41,822 bases of DNA from Escherichia phage vB-Eco-KMB41, in the sequence record OR539216.1; one strand, given 5' to 3'. Below the pieces are notes generated by a model that saw only the letters and a program-made list of their open reading frames with translations, was not told the DNA's origin and did not search any database. This document shows positions 2,821-41,822 of this stretch, piece after piece (positions within the stretch are counted from its first letter, which is position 1; each line of letters begins with the position of its first letter). The position numbers and the translations under genes are program-made.

Positions 2821-3624
2821 TGCTGCCGGGTTGACCGTGACCGTACAGACGGCGGAGGTAACGGTGTTCGGCGCGACGGTGTTCGAACTGGTGGCAATAC
2901 AGCGGTATTGACCAGCGTCCCCGGTCGCCGGGCTGGCAACGTTCAGCGTTGCGGCGGTAGCCCCGGAGATGTTCGTCCAGGAGGTCCCGCCGTTCGTGGA
3001 CTTCTGCCACTGGTAGGAGTACGGCGCGAGGCCCGTCGTGGAGTTTACCGCGATCGACAAGCTGGCTGCGGTCCCCACGGTCCAGGTGGCGGTCGCCGGG
3101 AGGTTGGTCGAGAGAGCGATCGCTGGCTTGGTACGCTCGCGCAAGCTCTCGGCGGTCTGGCCCGCGCTGTCGGTTACGCGGCAAAAATAATCGCCGTTGT
3201 TCCCTGCTGCGTACCCGGTGATCGTATACGTCGGGGAGTTCGTCCCCACTGGGTTGTCGGTGCTGGATGCCCGGCGAAACCATGCGTAAGTATACGGCGG
3301 GACGCCACCACTCACGGCGACCGTGAACGTCTTGTTACTTCCCAGTGGGATATAACTCGCCCCGGCGTCGTTGGCGTTGTTACCCGGTAAATTTTGGGTA
3401 AACACGATCGGCGGGACCAGCGCCGGATCCAGTTCGATGTAAAACATTTTCGTGGGGTCCAGGTTGGACGGTTCACTGTCCAGCCAGATCACATCCTTTT
3501 GATGGACCTTGCTCGGATCAAGGATTCGCGTCACTTTCCAGCCCATCAGGTCGGCGCGGCGGTAACGATGCCAATAAGCCATAATTTTGTCCTCGTGAAA
3601 TTGTGCGGTATACTGCCCCGGCAT
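2818..3624 (-). CDS. Ig-like domain protein (two tandem Ig-like repeats)
   Basis: Two ~80-aa repeats sharing PPYTYAW/APYSYQW and GDYFC/GQYRC motifs typical of Ig-like folds; N-terminal ~90 aa unrelated. Alternative start at Met15 (about 3582) has a better SD (GAGGA). Confidence 0.75.
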   Translation of the reverse strand: MPGQYTAQFHEDKIMAYWHRYRRADLMGWKVTRILDPSKVHQKDVIWLDSEPSNLDPTKMFYIELDPALVPPIVFTQNLPGNNANDAGASYIPLGSNKTFTVAVSGGVPPYTYAWFRRASSTDNPVGTNSPTYTITGYAAGNNGDYFCRVTDSAGQTAESLRERTKPAIALSTNLPATATWTVGTAASLSIAVNSTTGLAPYSYQWQKSTNGGTSWTNISGATAATLNVASPATGDAGQYRCIATSSNTVAPNTVTSAVCTVTVNPAA

Positions 3625-19200: not shown

Positions 19201-19285
19201 ATCCGGGCTGAGTTGGGACCTGATTAGGGAGCGCCGTCGCATTTTCCGGCATATTCTGATCGAACTGGTCAAAGATGTTAGCCAT
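16259..19285 (-). CDS. ejection/internal virion protein with N-terminal lytic transglycosylase (SLT) domain (1008 aa)
   Basis: SLT signature near N-terminus (LMGKESSGNPAA...GAMGLTQVMPDTA...AQYLSRMYQRYGDW), long Gly/Ala/Gln-rich linker, large C-terminal body; occupies the position of P22 gp16. Confidence 0.75.
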   Translation of the reverse strand: MANIFDQFDQNMPENATALPNQVPTQPGSSGSGYADVVESAGAKWGIPAGLMTQLMGKESSGNPAARSKKGAMGLTQVMPDTAREMGYDPDALAQDPAMQADAGAQYLSRMYQRYGDWGTALQAYHDGPGNVDKQLAGQATPGPEGRQYVDDRFNQWTGRGAGSDGSGEPTQYATSARSPSAGGNVFDQFGDYQPPAAAADGAGAPGADQQVAAVAAGNAPNQAGSDGAQGAAAPNSNGVQSGANQPGQTDPNEEAARNWEQLGQTVLHSLDQGARGVAQTGIDLLNTPISLANMISQAVTDAGKGVGLVDQNTQAPTITPGGIPGLAPTDKYAQIGTLIGDMLAPLPGPRKAQAATELLGLVREAPDATSFATRLADMTQNWIAAPAARAVPGAVAAGRGDPEETLTNIALAPAGEAIGRAVIGGAGKLWNALRAPEGAAGGAADAAADATRSTQATEAGISDAVARDASKFRLTPDRNVQGANGEALRASDDAIDLANMADVDKKLIKTARDLGLEDQLTPAAYARDTNFRSTIQQLVSRKGSALETQQLNGISRLGEKADELIDSMSSMNAQTIDQAFTARTRAVIDGLGDEAEKAYNAIAAKIPRNAQVRPDSTVDYLTAKADELGGEAYLSSAERKALDWMAPKPGKVDPATGLPDQDVATIPTYSRIDTLRKQVGQALNKKSGPFKDEETGALKQLYARLTDDQEKVAAQYGAADDWNVAKQLVKRRKDLETIAQDALGKNLTDSITGKVQNAILNLGKKGGSAKDWDRLMAATPESLKGDVVANALERTLGNRSARDTFAIPGFVDWYKTAQANGTLGNVMKHLPRDQRVRLMQIYRVANGIDRAKRFTTTTGSISDFVKRFDDPNAGGVLSKLYGAGGWLAKHTAAYLAAGPAGNAALSAAQAARGARVPRSVLADNLLSSPDFSKLMQAAAAQSSGKLTPAGRTFVREAEQAAANSPEWRALYEAFSPEEKAAVNRAGIVGFFSGAGGRAAATEQQQQQ

Positions 19286-20610
19286 TAAAGCCCCTCCGGT
19301 AAGAATCCGTATTTTGCTTTAAATTGCTCTTTGACGCTAGGCGTAGGATTTTGCATCAGGTAATTAAGCGCCGCCTGGGCGTTCTGCTGCGGGATCCCCC
19401 CAGCGGTCAGTTGCCCGATTGCCTCCTGTTTCGCGTCGTCCAGTTGGATCTCGCGACGGTAGGACTCCACGCGCCCGCCCTGGTTCTTCTCCAGCGCCGC
19501 CTTGCCCTTCTCCAGACTGGTGACATAACGCTGGATCACGGCCTTAAGCTGGTCCTCGCTCATTTGTCCGGGGTTGGCGTTCAGCAGGGCATTAGCCGCC
19601 GCCTCGCCTTCCTTCTCCGTGACCGAACCAGTCCCGCGTAAGGACTCCATCCCGGCGAGTCGCGCCTGGCTCTTAAGCTGGTCCAGGGTCTGGACGATCT
19701 CCGCCGTGTTATCGCCGCCACCAGTCGCCGCCGACCAGAAGCGGTTTCCGTAGCCGTTGATCCCGGTAACGTAGCCCAGGTCCTTACGCGCTAAAAGCTG
19801 TTTAGCCAGATCCAGCGACGTGTCGATCGGGGCCAGCGTCTTGTCGAACGTCTGGAGAAAATCGCGTTTCGTGTTGAGGCTGTCGGCCTGTAGCTTCGCT
19901 TGCTGCTGGGCGTACTTGCCGCGCTCAATGTCGTTTTTCTCCTGCGCGATCCGGGTGTTCAGTCGCTCGTTTTGTAGCCCGATGTAACGGAGGTTACGGT
20001 CCGCCGCCTGGCTGGCTGCGTTAAGGTCCTGCCCCCTGATCGTGGTCGTGTTCTTCATGACCTCTTTCGCGTAGTCCAGTTGGTCCTTGCTGGTGTTGCT
20101 GGCAAGGTGGAGCGCCTGGACGGAACGGCGGAACGCGTCCGGGTCGTTCTGCGCGGCCTGTAGTGCTGCGTTCGGGTCAATCCCCATAGCCTGGAGCGCC
20201 GGGGCGTTCTGCTGGACGAACTGCGCCGCCGCCTCTGGTCCTTGCGCGATCGCGACGTCCGCCTGGCTGGCTAACTGGGATCCCTGCTGCTGGCGAATCT
20301 GGTCCGTCAGTCCGAGACGTTTCTGGAGCGCCTCGATCTGGTTCGGGTACTTGTACGCCAGCGCCTGGATCGCGGAAGGGTCGCCCGCTGCCGCTTGCCA
20401 GTCTTTATTGAACTGGGCCATTTGCTCCTGATTCACCTGCGCGGCTTTCATCGCCATTCCCTGCTGTCGGTTCTGGATCTGCTGCGCGGTGTTGTTCTGG
20501 ATCAGGCCGATATTCTGGAGCGTGTTCGTCCCCGCCGCCTGGATGTTCTGGAGGTTGTTCCACAGGTCGCCCGGATCCGCGCCGCCGCCACCGCCTAATA
20601 ATTGAGCCAT
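19285..20610 (-). CDS. ejection protein (P22 gp20-like, positional)
   Basis: 441-aa Gln/Ala-rich protein between gp7-like and gp16-like genes, with ATGA-type overlaps. Confidence 0.65.
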   Translation of the reverse strand: MAQLLGGGGGADPGDLWNNLQNIQAAGTNTLQNIGLIQNNTAQQIQNRQQGMAMKAAQVNQEQMAQFNKDWQAAAGDPSAIQALAYKYPNQIEALQKRLGLTDQIRQQQGSQLASQADVAIAQGPEAAAQFVQQNAPALQAMGIDPNAALQAAQNDPDAFRRSVQALHLASNTSKDQLDYAKEVMKNTTTIRGQDLNAASQAADRNLRYIGLQNERLNTRIAQEKNDIERGKYAQQQAKLQADSLNTKRDFLQTFDKTLAPIDTSLDLAKQLLARKDLGYVTGINGYGNRFWSAATGGGDNTAEIVQTLDQLKSQARLAGMESLRGTGSVTEKEGEAAANALLNANPGQMSEDQLKAVIQRYVTSLEKGKAALEKNQGGRVESYRREIQLDDAKQEAIGQLTAGGIPQQNAQAALNYLMQNPTPSVKEQFKAKYGFLPEGL

Positions 20611-21272
20611 TAGATCATACCTCCGAACATGCCGCCGAACATGGACGTAAAGCTGTTCGCGTCCTGCGCCGCGCCTTGTGACATTTGATTATTAGCCGTT
20701 GCTGCGGTGTTCCACGGCAAGGCCGCTTTTTGGCCCAGGATCTGGCCCTTCTGTCCTGCGAGAGCGGTCAGGGCGTTAGTCGTCCCGGTAGCCGCTGCGG
20801 ACTGAGCGCCAGCGCCAGATAAGCCGACGTTAGTCAGGCCCAGAAGCTGGTTAAACATATCTTGCTGCTGCGCTTGCATCGCGTTCAGGTAGTTCTGGCC
20901 CAGCGTAGGCGCGATCGCCGCGAGTCCGTTCTGGGTAGCCGTCGATCCGAGGCCCCCGGTCGCTTCCGCGCTGGCGAGTTGCGTCCGACGCGCCGCGTCC
21001 TCGTTCATGGCGAACTCTTTCCCGCCGTAGTAGTCGGAAAGAAGCTGCTCACGATCGATCGGCTGGCCCGCGATCGCCGTCAGTTGTGGGAGTGCATTCG
21101 TCCCGGCCTCACGGAAGGGGCTTAACCATTCCGCCTGTTGCGCCTGTAGCTCGCGCTGATAGTCCATCTGTTTATCGGTGGCTTTCTGCTGCTGCTTAAG
21201 GGCCTTATTCGTCCCGATGCCGCCTAAAACGGATGATACAGCGCCGCCGATCCCGCTAATTGCTCCGCCCAT
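20610..21272 (-). CDS. ejection protein (P22 gp7-like)
   Basis: Gly-rich N-terminus, PFREAGT motif as recalled in P22 gp7, Gln/Ala-rich body, C-terminal FGGMFGGM. Confidence 0.7.
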   Translation of the reverse strand: MGGAISGIGGAVSSVLGGIGTNKALKQQQKATDKQMDYQRELQAQQAEWLSPFREAGTNALPQLTAIAGQPIDREQLLSDYYGGKEFAMNEDAARRTQLASAEATGGLGSTATQNGLAAIAPTLGQNYLNAMQAQQQDMFNQLLGLTNVGLSGAGAQSAAATGTTNALTALAGQKGQILGQKAALPWNTAATANNQMSQGAAQDANSFTSMFGGMFGGMI

Positions 21273-21715
21273 TTGGTCCTCTCCTCAAAAAAATTACTTC
21301 CGCCATGTTACCGTCCGCCAATTGTACAAGCTGCGGGGCGCTTTCAACAAATCCCACCTTTCGGACCACGTTCCGCGCGTGTCGGTGTGACATGAGAACA
21401 GGGACGCGGATCGCATAATGGCCCCAGTGAGCCAGAAAAGCCTCGCAAGCCTCGCGTGACCGTCTGCGTCTGGGTGGATCCATCGCCATATGACCATCGA
21501 TCCCGCCTTCGTCGTTTGCCATGATGGCGAACACGCAACGCCATATGACCATCGATCCCGCCTTCGTCGTTTGCCATGATGGCGAACACGCAACATTTTT
21601 CCCACAGAAAATATTTTGCCTCGACGTGGCGAGGCCATTCCGGCAAGCCCCAGGCGTGGAGGAGGTCCACGCCGGAGTCTGGCACGAGTTCGATCATCTC
21701 TCCATAGTCCATCAT
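21256..21715 (-). pseudogene. virion gene at the P22 gene-14 position, frameshifted by an exact 55-bp tandem duplication
   Basis: Three overlapping minus-strand ORFs in different frames; peptide CVFAIMANDEGGIDGHMA is encoded twice, once per repeat copy; removing one copy would give a single ~134-aa ORF. Confidence 0.55.
21484..21593. repeat. Exact tandem direct repeat, 2 x 55 bp (GCCATATGACCATCGATCCCGCCTTCGTCGTTTGCCATGATGGCGAACACGCAAC)
   Basis: Two identical adjacent copies read directly in the sequence; 55 is not a multiple of 3. Confidence 0.85.
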
Positions 21716-22287
21716 TACGTCCCGATAAAGCCCTGGCTGATACCCATAGCCACCAGCGCGGCTACGACCTGCCGGATCTCCATCAGCCCGGCGTTTAGCG
21801 TTGCTACGTCCGAGTAGGTCGCGTCAGCGTTAAAGCCGCCTTTCTGCTGGGTTCCGGTTGCTGCCGTCCATCCGGTGTTACGCCCGCCCATTACCTTGAC
21901 GTTGTTCACGCGGATCTCCGTCCCGATGGATAACGGGCCTTGCATCACCTGGAGCGCCGTCAGCGCCTTTTTAATCACCTCCCCGTCCAGATCGCTAACG
22001 GTCTGTTCCAGCGTGTCAAAATTGCCCTGGAGGGTGTTAAAATCGACCTCGATCGTGTTCATGCGACCGTTAAGGCTGGAGATCTCCCCGTCCTGCTGGT
22101 CGTTTCGGATTCGCTGCTGGTCGGCGATTTGGAACGCGTCAGACGCCGCTCCCTCGGCGTTGTTCGCGGTGTCCCCGGTTCCCTGCGAGAAGGCCCCCAG
22201 TCGGATCAGCCAGTCCTTGAACGCCGGAGGAGTACCCGGCGGGAAGCTCTGGACGTTTAGCTGTTGAAGCGTGTTAACAGTAGCCAT
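21715..22287 (-). CDS. tail needle protein (P22 gp26-like)
   Basis: Heptad-rich coiled-coil region and C-terminal motif TGWTAATGTQQKGGFNAD matching P22 gp26 as recalled. Confidence 0.85.
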   Translation of the reverse strand: MATVNTLQQLNVQSFPPGTPPAFKDWLIRLGAFSQGTGDTANNAEGAASDAFQIADQQRIRNDQQDGEISSLNGRMNTIEVDFNTLQGNFDTLEQTVSDLDGEVIKKALTALQVMQGPLSIGTEIRVNNVKVMGGRNTGWTAATGTQQKGGFNADATYSDVATLNAGLMEIRQVVAALVAMGISQGFIGT

Positions 22288-26108: not shown

Positions 26109-27107
26109 TTACTTCTTCCGGTTCTTCGCTGCCAGGTAATCCGTATAATCTCCGGTTGCTTCGGCGCGTTTGCGGAGGGCTTCGAGTTGCCCCACGTTCG
26201 CGACGCCGTTCTGGCCTTTGACTTCTGGCGTTTTGTTTACTTCTTTCTTGGCCTTTGGTGCGCGTCCTGCGCGGCTCTCAATATCGCGGATAAGGTAGCC
26301 CAGCCCGATATGGTCCGTATTGTAGGCTTCCTCGACCTGTTTACGCAAATCCGCGTTACGACCGATCGCCATTACGACGCCCGCCGGGTCGTTCTTGCTA
26401 TGGATCATCATTGCCGCCTGGAGTGGTTCCGGCAGTTCTGCGATCACGGCTTCCGCCTTCTCATAGCCCGCAAAGCGTTTTAACGCCTTCGCGCGTTCCG
26501 TCTGGTAGCGCTGCTGGCCTTCGCTGAATTGTTTGCCGAAAACCTCCATGCGCTGGGCTTGCTTTTCCTGGTGCTGCTGCCATGCGGCCTTATCTTCGGT
26601 CCACTTGTCCAGCGCCTCGGCGTACTTCTCCGGGTCCCAGTCGATCCCTTCGTCGCCCATTTCCGGCTTACGCGGCATATCGGCGGGGATGTTCGCTGGA
26701 TCCTTCTTCTGGGTGGATTCCTTGAACTGTTTCTTTTGCTCGCGGAGTTGGGCGCGAAGATGCTTAACCAGATCGGTGTCGCCTTCCTGATCGTCCTCGT
26801 CGGAGGCTTCCACGGTCACAGGCTTGCCGTCGAACAAAAACTCCTCTTGCTCGTCGTCGTCGCCGCCGTTCTCGCCGTTCTCGCCTTCCTTCGCCTTCGG
26901 CTTGCCGTTTTCGTCCAGGTCCTGCTCGTCCGTGTCAGTGTCCGCATTGTCGCGATCCTGCTCGTCCGGGTCGGTGTCCGGGGTGTCGTCGGCGTTGTCG
27001 TTCTGGTCCGCGTTCTCGCTGTTCTGCATAGCTTCATACGCCGCCGCGCCGCCGTCGTTCTCGGTGTGCGGTGCGTAATATTTCAAAAACATTTCACGGA
27101 ATTTCAT
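26109..27107 (-). CDS. scaffolding protein
   Basis: Highly acidic N-terminal half, helical Lys/Glu/Gln-rich body; positioned immediately upstream of coat as in P22 gene 8. Confidence 0.75.
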   Translation of the reverse strand: MKFREMFLKYYAPHTENDGGAAAYEAMQNSENADQNDNADDTPDTDPDEQDRDNADTDTDEQDLDENGKPKAKEGENGENGGDDDEQEEFLFDGKPVTVEASDEDDQEGDTDLVKHLRAQLREQKKQFKESTQKKDPANIPADMPRKPEMGDEGIDWDPEKYAEALDKWTEDKAAWQQHQEKQAQRMEVFGKQFSEGQQRYQTERAKALKRFAGYEKAEAVIAELPEPLQAAMMIHSKNDPAGVVMAIGRNADLRKQVEEAYNTDHIGLGYLIRDIESRAGRAPKAKKEVNKTPEVKGQNGVANVGQLEALRKRAEATGDYTDYLAAKNRKK

Positions 27108-40779: not shown

Positions 40780-41217
40780 ATGTCACTGTTTGACGATGAA
40801 GCGCCACGCGCCCCACTTCGGGCCAACGTAGCGCCACGTAAGACGCCACAGGAGAGACTCCTGGAGATACTGGAGAAGGTCCGCTCCACCGATCCGTCCA
40901 TCCATGACGCGATCGAACAGGGGAGAATGGATCCTTATCTGCCGACGGTCGAGACGCGGAACGCTTTTCTAACTCTGCGCCCGTCGGAGCAAATATTCGC
41001 GGCGTTCTGGGACTGCCCCGGCGTCGATCGTAAGAAGTTAATGGACCTATGCCGACACGCCGGAAAGATGGAGCGAGCCGGAAAATTACGGGACCTTAAG
41101 GTGGACCGCTCGAAGCTGGCGACCACTGAAAGCGGGATCCCCCCAGGCGTCGAGATTGGCCCGGAGTTGGCCCTCGCCGCACTACAATGCAAGCAAGCCA
41201 TGAGGAAAGAGAGATGA
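40780..41217 (+). CDS. hypothetical protein (145 aa)
   Basis: ORF with GGAGG SD 7 nt upstream, first gene of the rightward unit leaving the divergent control region; the overlapping minus-strand ORF 40935..41798 is rejected. Confidence 0.65.
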   Translation: MSLFDDEAPRAPLRANVAPRKTPQERLLEILEKVRSTDPSIHDAIEQGRMDPYLPTVETRNAFLTLRPSEQIFAAFWDCPGVDRKKLMDLCRHAGKMERAGKLRDLKVDRSKLATTESGIPPGVEIGPELALAALQCKQAMRKER

Positions 41218-41822
41218 TCAGATATATCGCAGTAACCGAAGAAGCGGACCAGGACGAGAGCATGGCGTCCCACATCCCGGAGAGTCAGATCGAGCGCATC
41301 GATCGCGCTGCTAATGGTAAGGCTATCCTGATCGTTCGTGAATATCGCGAGAAGTGCCGCGAAGATTCCGAGTGTTACGGTCGGAAGGAATGGCGGATCG
41401 ATGGCTACGAGTCGCAAGAGCGCTACAGCGTGATGAAGTTCGACGACCTGATCGCCTGGCTGAATGGCATCCCGCCGGAGCCGATGGTGGTTGACTTCGA
41501 TCGCCTGTCGCCGGAGGAGCGCGAGAACGTCATGGACAATCTGGTGGCGGCGCGTCATGCCCTGCGCAACGTGAACAGTAAGACCGTACTCCAGCCAGCG
41601 CCAGCGCATCACGTCGGCCTCGACTCGGACGTGTGGGCCGTGGTCAAACTGCTGGAGGCTCGCGAGTGGGCCGAACATTGCACGACGACCGAACTCGGCG
41701 GACGTCTGGAGTCGGAGATCACGAAGCTGGTCGGGACTGAGAACGAAACGGCGGGCAAGCTCAAACGGGCGGAGCAATTGCTGGCGGAGATCCATCACGC
41801 GGTCAATAACGACGGCGGGCTT
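41214..41822 (+). CDS. hypothetical protein, 3'-truncated at window end (203 codons here; continues in frame at 1..66 if the molecule is circular)
   Basis: ATGA overlap with 40780..41217; open to the last base; frame closes exactly at the window end and resumes at position 1 to a TAG at 64..66. Confidence 0.6.
   Translation, partial: MIRYIAVTEEADQDESMASHIPESQIERIDRAANGKAILIVREYREKCREDSECYGRKEWRIDGYESQERYSVMKFDDLIAWLNGIPPEPMVVDFDRLSPEERENVMDNLVAARHALRNVNSKTVLQPAPAHHVGLDSDVWAVVKLLEAREWAEHCTTTELGGRLESEITKLVGTENETAGKLKRAEQLLAEIHHAVNNDGGL

Follow-up and report, generated by a model that had tools for sequence, protein, structure and literature searches.

The record of the Escherichia phage vB-Eco-KMB41 (OR539216, 41.8 kb, genus Murrayvirus) contains a unit of 55 bp that is present twice, back to back, within a gene that is conserved among related phages and that is split into overlapping reading frames in the deposited sequence. 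This raises the question whether the repeat belongs to the phage, either as a recent inactivating duplication or as a site that is read through by a programmed frameshift, or whether it was introduced when the genome was assembled. A sequence-only reading of the locus had left these three options side by side. Based on the comparison with related phages and with the other genomes of the same study (PMC11162368), we have little doubt that the duplication is the untrimmed end-overlap, with k = 55, of a circular SPAdes contig, which was retained when the contig was rotated, and that it is not a feature of the phage. In the following, the window denotes the whole stretch of 41,822 bp that was analysed, and positions refer to it.

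The repeat and the reading frame that it breaks

For the region 21484..21594 Tandem Repeats Finder gives a period of 55, 2.0 copies, 100% matches, 0 indels, and a score of 222. By direct string comparison the two copies (Table 1) are identical at 55 of 55 positions and follow each other without any spacer, so that the exact back-to-back unit noticed in the first reading is confirmed in two ways. The C at 21594 is a single further base that continues the periodicity, which fits chance. The repeat unit runs CGCCATATG...ACACGCAA, and the junction between the copies, at 21538/21539, reads ...GGCGAACACGCAA followed directly by CGCCATATGACC... This is the sole exact tandem duplication with a period of at least 12 bp in the whole window, and two adjacent identical 55-mers cannot arise by chance in a sequence of 41.8 kb.

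Because 55 is not a multiple of three, the additional copy shifts the reading frame in silico. The gene is split, as had been described, into two overlapping ORFs on the minus strand with lengths of 123 and 98 residues, and the peptide CVFAIMANDEGGIDGHMA is encoded in two frames. Only residues 1-59 of the 123-aa ORF are genuine; the remainder is an out-of-frame read-through due to the extra copy. At its stop, the 98-aa ORF shares 17 nt with the start of the gp7-like gene, which is also the case in the relatives. If one copy is deleted, a single ORF is obtained, and its length of 134 residues agrees with the approximate length that had been expected. Thus, the claim that the duplication frameshifts the gene is true for the deposited record, in which the frame is broken, but it most probably does not describe a property of the phage.

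Table 1. Coordinates of the features at the KMB41 locus and of the perfect tandem duplications in the genomes of the same study.
Genome	Feature	Coordinates	Strand	Basis or remark
KMB41	P22 gp7-like DNA-ejection protein (PF25688), downstream neighbour	20610..21272	-	profile match
KMB41	affected gene, P22 gene-14 position	21256..21715	-	134-aa ORF once one copy is removed; phrog_17333
KMB41	98-aa ORF	21256..21552	-	includes the protein's 93 genuine C-terminal residues
KMB41	123-aa ORF, deposited in NCBI as 'hypothetical protein [Escherichia phage vB-Eco-KMB41]' (P0011)	21344..21715	-	ORF list and homology search
KMB41	copy 1, unit CGCCATATGACCATCGATCCCGCCTTCGTCGTTTGCCATGATGGCGAACACGCAA	21484..21538	.	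presumably one end of the original SPAdes contig
KMB41	copy 2, 100% identical to copy 1	21539..21593	.	presumably the other end of the original contig
KMB41	tail-needle protein, 190 aa (phrog_1219), upstream neighbour	21715..22287	-	profile match
KMB41 (Murrayvirus, OR539216)	55-bp duplication	21484-21593
KMB47 (Vectrevirus, OR424385)	55-bp duplication	41879-41988		57 + 556 aa with duplication, 570 aa with one copy
KMB35 (Kagunavirus, OR525704)	55-bp duplication	41411-41520		41 + 54 aa with duplication, 82 aa with one copy; plus a trivial 12-bp duplication
KMB36 (Kagunavirus, OR525703)	55-bp duplication	41155-41264		83 aa with duplication, 102 aa with one copy; plus a 16-bp duplication
KMB46 (OR525699)	50-bp duplication, perfect	3371-3470

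The placement of the gene between a gp7-like gene and a tail-needle gene, corresponding to the position of gene 14 in P22, is borne out by the profile matches of both neighbours, and further out the locus is flanked by gp10-like (PF11134) and gp20-like (PF16928) genes. Some features of these surroundings are of interest in their own right. The gp20-like ejection-protein gene is a single ORF of 441 aa in the window (19285-20610, minus strand) and a single, similarly long CDS in ST231, Lumpael, sortsyn, and sortregn, and in IME_EC2 it is annotated as two overlapping CDSs (19297-19782 and 19779-20621). This suggests a frameshift in the gp20-like gene of the IME_EC2 record, which is possibly a sequencing error. 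The tail needle is mosaic in the genus: KMB41 and ST231 encode a needle of 190 aa, and sortsyn and IME_EC2 one of 256 aa, for which an Sf6-type knob is annotated. The nucleotide similarity of KMB41 to sortsyn and IME_EC2 ends at the boundary of the needle gene (query position 1102). Inside the needle gene there is an imperfect repeat at 22010-22059 with a period of 21 bp, 2.4 copies, and 75% matches; 21 bp correspond to seven residues and thus to the heptad period expected of the trimeric coiled coil of P22-type needles. Another imperfect tandem repeat, of 36 bp (26920-26988, 1.9 copies, 84% matches), is located in an ORF of 332 aa (26109-27107, minus strand) that is colinear with the gene for the IME_EC2 scaffolding protein, and it would correspond to an in-frame repeat of 12 residues.

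Single-copy relatives and the sister genomes

The window is colinear over its full length with the Murrayvirus genomes ST231, IME_EC2, Lumpael, sortsyn, and sortregn, at roughly 84-90% identity. In the annotations of all five of these close relatives the gene is a single intact ORF with a length of 128-134 aa, and in the DNA alignment all five show a clean gap of 55 columns exactly at the position of the extra copy in KMB41. The comparison of one versus two copies in related genomes, which had been proposed as a check, thus gives a single copy in every one of them. The restored 134-aa protein is 88-93% identical to the intact ORFs of the five phages. A translated search gave 21 phage records with a homolog, none of which has an interruption in it; these include records of Kosakonia, Klebsiella, Stutzerimonas, and Aeromonas phages. 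Compared to the relatives, the 75 codons 3' of the repeat contain 14-19 synonymous and 6-8 nonsynonymous differences. Given this excess of synonymous changes the gene does not show decay, and purifying selection has acted on the frame until now.

The sister genomes are even more informative about the length of the repeat. Seven genomes of the study (KMB41, KMB47, KMB35, KMB36, KMB46, KMB14, and KMB25) were scanned for exact tandem duplications with periods of 12-1000 bp, with ST231, IME_EC2, and 101101UKE1 from other laboratories as controls. Four of the seven KMB genomes, belonging to three unrelated genera, contain exactly one perfect tandem duplication of 55 bp each (Table 1). The sequences of the four units are mutually unrelated. 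All four duplications interrupt an ORF, which in each case fuses again as soon as one copy is removed. The three control genomes lack exact tandem duplications with periods longer than 12 bp. For the sites in KMB47, KMB35, and KMB36, the relatives listed, all from other laboratories, cover 545-547 of the 601 query bases, which corresponds to one copy, and these listed single-copy relatives include a genome that is 99.8% identical to KMB47. The 570-aa tail-protein ORF of KMB47 is intact in MZ234012.1 (39868-41580). It is not credible that four perfect duplications of the same length, which equals a SPAdes k, in viable phages that belong to three unrelated genera and passed through one pipeline are of biological origin.

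The workflow was not uniform across the study. KMB14 and KMB25 have no exact tandem duplication within the scanned range of periods, and the perfect repeat in KMB46 has a length of 50 bp. This latter repeat is located 3' of a side-tail-fibre gene and is present as a single copy in ityhuna and tonn, which are 99.5-99.7% identical; it is probably an artefact of joining, too, with another overlap length.

Origin of the duplication

According to PMC11162368 the Illumina reads were assembled with SPAdes 3.10.1 and the contigs were subsequently rotated to the EC2 start, a step called 'genome zeroing'; the values of k are not stated. Base 1 of IME_EC2 indeed aligns with base 1 of the KMB41 window, and therefore the contig must have been rotated after assembly. 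From these steps the repeat could have been generated as follows. The phage genome would assemble as a circle, presumably as a result of P22-like headful packaging, which leads to circular permutation. SPAdes, which is based on de Bruijn graphs, would open such a circle into a linear contig that begins and ends with the same k bases, with k = 55 in this case. If the contig is then cut at the EC2 start and its former ends are connected while both copies of the overlap are kept, these ends would come to adjoin at 21538/21539 and would appear as a perfect internal tandem repeat of 55 bp. That the join falls within the conserved 134-aa gene would be by chance, and the frame would be broken in the record only. 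The true KMB41 genome would then probably comprise 41,767 bp with a single copy of the unit and an intact gene.

The length of 55 bp belongs to the standard k series of SPAdes (21, 33, 55, 77, 99, 127). Ends of circular contigs 'overlapping by 55 bp' have been reported (PMC8851603), an overlap of 55 bp has been reported for SPAdes and metaSPAdes graphs, and overlaps of contig ends have been treated in general terms only in PMC8172020. That 55 was the final k is not documented in PMC11162368. We infer it from the recurrence of the 55-bp length, and likewise the contig ends would have been located at this site. In SPAdes, the automatic choice of k for 2x300-bp reads would normally end at 127, so that a final k of 55 must have come from an option set explicitly, the --sc mode, or the default of a wrapper.

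Repeats of this kind are known in a slightly different form. The 'artefactual DTR' also consists of two perfect copies whose length equals the k of the assembler, and it is due to SPAdes or other de Bruijn k-mer overlaps that remain when the genome of a phage, being circular or circularly permuted, is output in linear form. However, the copies of an artefactual DTR are usually found at the ends of a record, where they are easily recognised, whereas those of KMB41 are adjacent and internal after the rotation, look like a tandem duplication of biological origin, and interrupt a gene. Internal repeats of about 79 bp in short-read phage assemblies made with Shovill/SPAdes have been shown by Sanger sequencing and hybrid assembly to be artefacts (PMC10438801). 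They resemble the repeat in KMB41 in being spurious, in being internal to finished short-read assemblies, and in their potential to give apparent frameshifts. They differ in that their length is about 79 bp and that they lie close to the direct terminal repeats in T7-like phages, whereas the location of the 55-bp repeat in KMB41 is arbitrary and depends on the point at which the assembler broke the circle.

It is very unlikely that the vKMB41 stock acquired a genuine tandem duplication only very recently and that this inactivated a dispensable accessory gene, although tandem duplications are known in phage genomes and the identical copies together with the undecayed downstream frame would fit a very recent event. 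No function has been assigned to the gene, so that it may be dispensable. However, it would be a coincidence that such a duplication has the length of a SPAdes k, and another one that the pipeline yielded one perfect 55-bp duplication each for three further, unrelated phages; in one of them, the plaque-forming phage KMB47, a tail protein of 570 aa would be hit. The microhomology flanking the repeat amounts to just one base, and the gene is intact in all of the 21 related records. In addition, the junction sequence between the copies has no match in the viral, genome, and metagenome collections, a result that is non-discriminating by itself. The recent inactivating duplication that had been offered as one option is therefore not borne out by the recurrence of the 55 bp in the sister records and by the intact relatives. 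An artefact of another kind, caused by manual editing, polishing, or a scaffolding error and not by a SPAdes k-mer overlap, would have to produce exactly 55 bp, a canonical SPAdes k, in four independent records, and we regard this as extremely unlikely given that SPAdes and rotation, both named in the paper, jointly predict exactly the observed outcome. In favour of another artefact, the duplication in KMB46, which 99.5-99.7%-identical relatives lack, points to more than one overlap length in the output of the workflow, and the unreported k leaves room for it.

The chance that a programmed +1 ribosomal frameshift or transcriptional slippage yields a full-length protein with an internal repeat of 18 residues is practically negligible. 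The two overlapping ORFs have a peptide of 18 aa in common, and phages are known to use programmed translational frameshifting in structural genes, as in the lambda G/GT tail chaperone, which has similarly overlapping ORFs in different frames within the late-gene cluster. However, real programmed frameshifts are accompanied by a conserved slippery sequence and by a two-frame architecture that is shared among relatives, and neither is found at the KMB41 site: all relatives have a single ORF, and there is no slippery motif within the repeat or between the repeat and the frame-0 stop. The sole heptamer nearby, GGGAAAA (21603-21597), does not fit the X XXY YYZ register and lacks conservation in ST231. 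It would also give a -1 shift, whereas a +1 shift is needed because 55 = 3x18+1. Furthermore, an insertion of 18 aa would fall in the strands 42-48 and 54-60 of the predicted fold, and a programmed shift is superfluous given that an artefact of the pipeline accounts for everything. Thus, with a slippery site that is not in register, the wrong direction, and no conservation, this option did not hold either. Of the three options it is the assembly artefact that is supported by the recurrence in the sister genomes and by the single copy in the relatives.

The affected gene and the consequences for the records

With the untrimmed overlap removed, the restored protein matches phrog_17333, a family of unknown function, with an E-value of 1e-57. 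Neither the restored protein nor four of its homologs have a hit in Pfam, even at E <= 10, and a profile search of the PDB sequences with the restored protein gave insignificant hits only. To get an idea of the fold we used an AlphaFold2 model of the homolog P0001, which is 93% identical, built on ten homologs; its confidence is high (pLDDT 86, pTM 0.77). In this model a strand is followed by a helix, three strands, a long helix, a strand, a helix, and two strands. Foldseek found 105 matches in the PDB at E <= 0.001, and the 50 listed (TMq 0.51-0.71) are all GNAT-type or putative acetyltransferases or uncharacterised proteins. In a viral structure library the matches were acetyltransferases and the model of a 'DUF2824 family protein' (E 6.8e-4, TMq 0.65). 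The 134-aa protein is therefore predicted to have a GNAT-like fold. Whether it could act as an acetyltransferase is uncertain. In the alignment, the loop that corresponds to the pyrophosphate-binding motif for acetyl-CoA (Q/R-x-x-G-x-G/A), located where the long central helix (residues 62-79) starts, has the invariant residues R65, R66, S68, R69, and A71 and does not contain any glycine, and in a loop that lacks the canonical glycines the catalytic competence is uncertain. The label 'virion gene', which the gene had been given in the sequence-only reading, is not supported by a family of no known function, the lack of a Pfam hit, and a predicted GNAT-like fold.

The position of the gene suggests a comparison with P22 gp14, which itself belongs to PF11039 (DUF2824, 6e-53) and to phrog_651. 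Both proteins share the slot between the tail-needle and gp7 genes, have similar sizes (134 versus 151 aa), and are probably similar in fold, judged from the match of the predicted fold to the DUF2824 model. However, they have no detectable sequence relationship. Membership of the 134-aa protein in the P22 gp14 family is not supported: it has no PF11039 hit at E <= 10, the hhalign probability is 0.4%, and the two proteins are assigned to different families, phrog_17333 and phrog_651. The divergent homolog from the Aeromonas phage 4_4512 was considered as a bridge to DUF2824 and gave no Pfam link at E <= 10. Thus, the gene is a positional counterpart of gp14 whose fold is probably similar, and not a demonstrated member of its family. 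Concerning the function of P22 gp14, the papers found in the literature use the name 'gp14' for the tailspike of Sf6 and for gp14 of T7.

In the improbable case that the duplication was real after all, vKMB41 would represent a natural knockout of a gene that is conserved at the gp14 position in 21 related records, and the GNAT-fold protein would be dispensable for plaque formation on the isolation host. If the repeat is the retained overlap of the contig ends, as we think, OR539216 is 55 bp too long, and a chimeric 'hypothetical protein' of 123 aa is already included in the NCBI nr database. At least three sister records (OR424385, OR525704, and OR525703) share the error, and OR525699 probably does so with 50 bp. 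The 55 bp need to be deleted from OR539216, where either copy may be taken out, and from at least these three records, and the frameshifted proteins that stem from them ought to be withdrawn. The split gene of the 570-aa tail protein in OR424385 bears on host-range analyses of phages that have been proposed for therapy. As a diagnostic, whenever a rotated short-read assembly of a phage or plasmid contains an internal perfect tandem repeat of 55, 77, 99, or 127 bp, this repeat should be regarded as an untrimmed k-mer overlap until reads contradict this. For the biology of the phage the duplication does not have any weight; vKMB41 almost certainly has an intact gene, like its relatives, and the value of the finding is curatorial.
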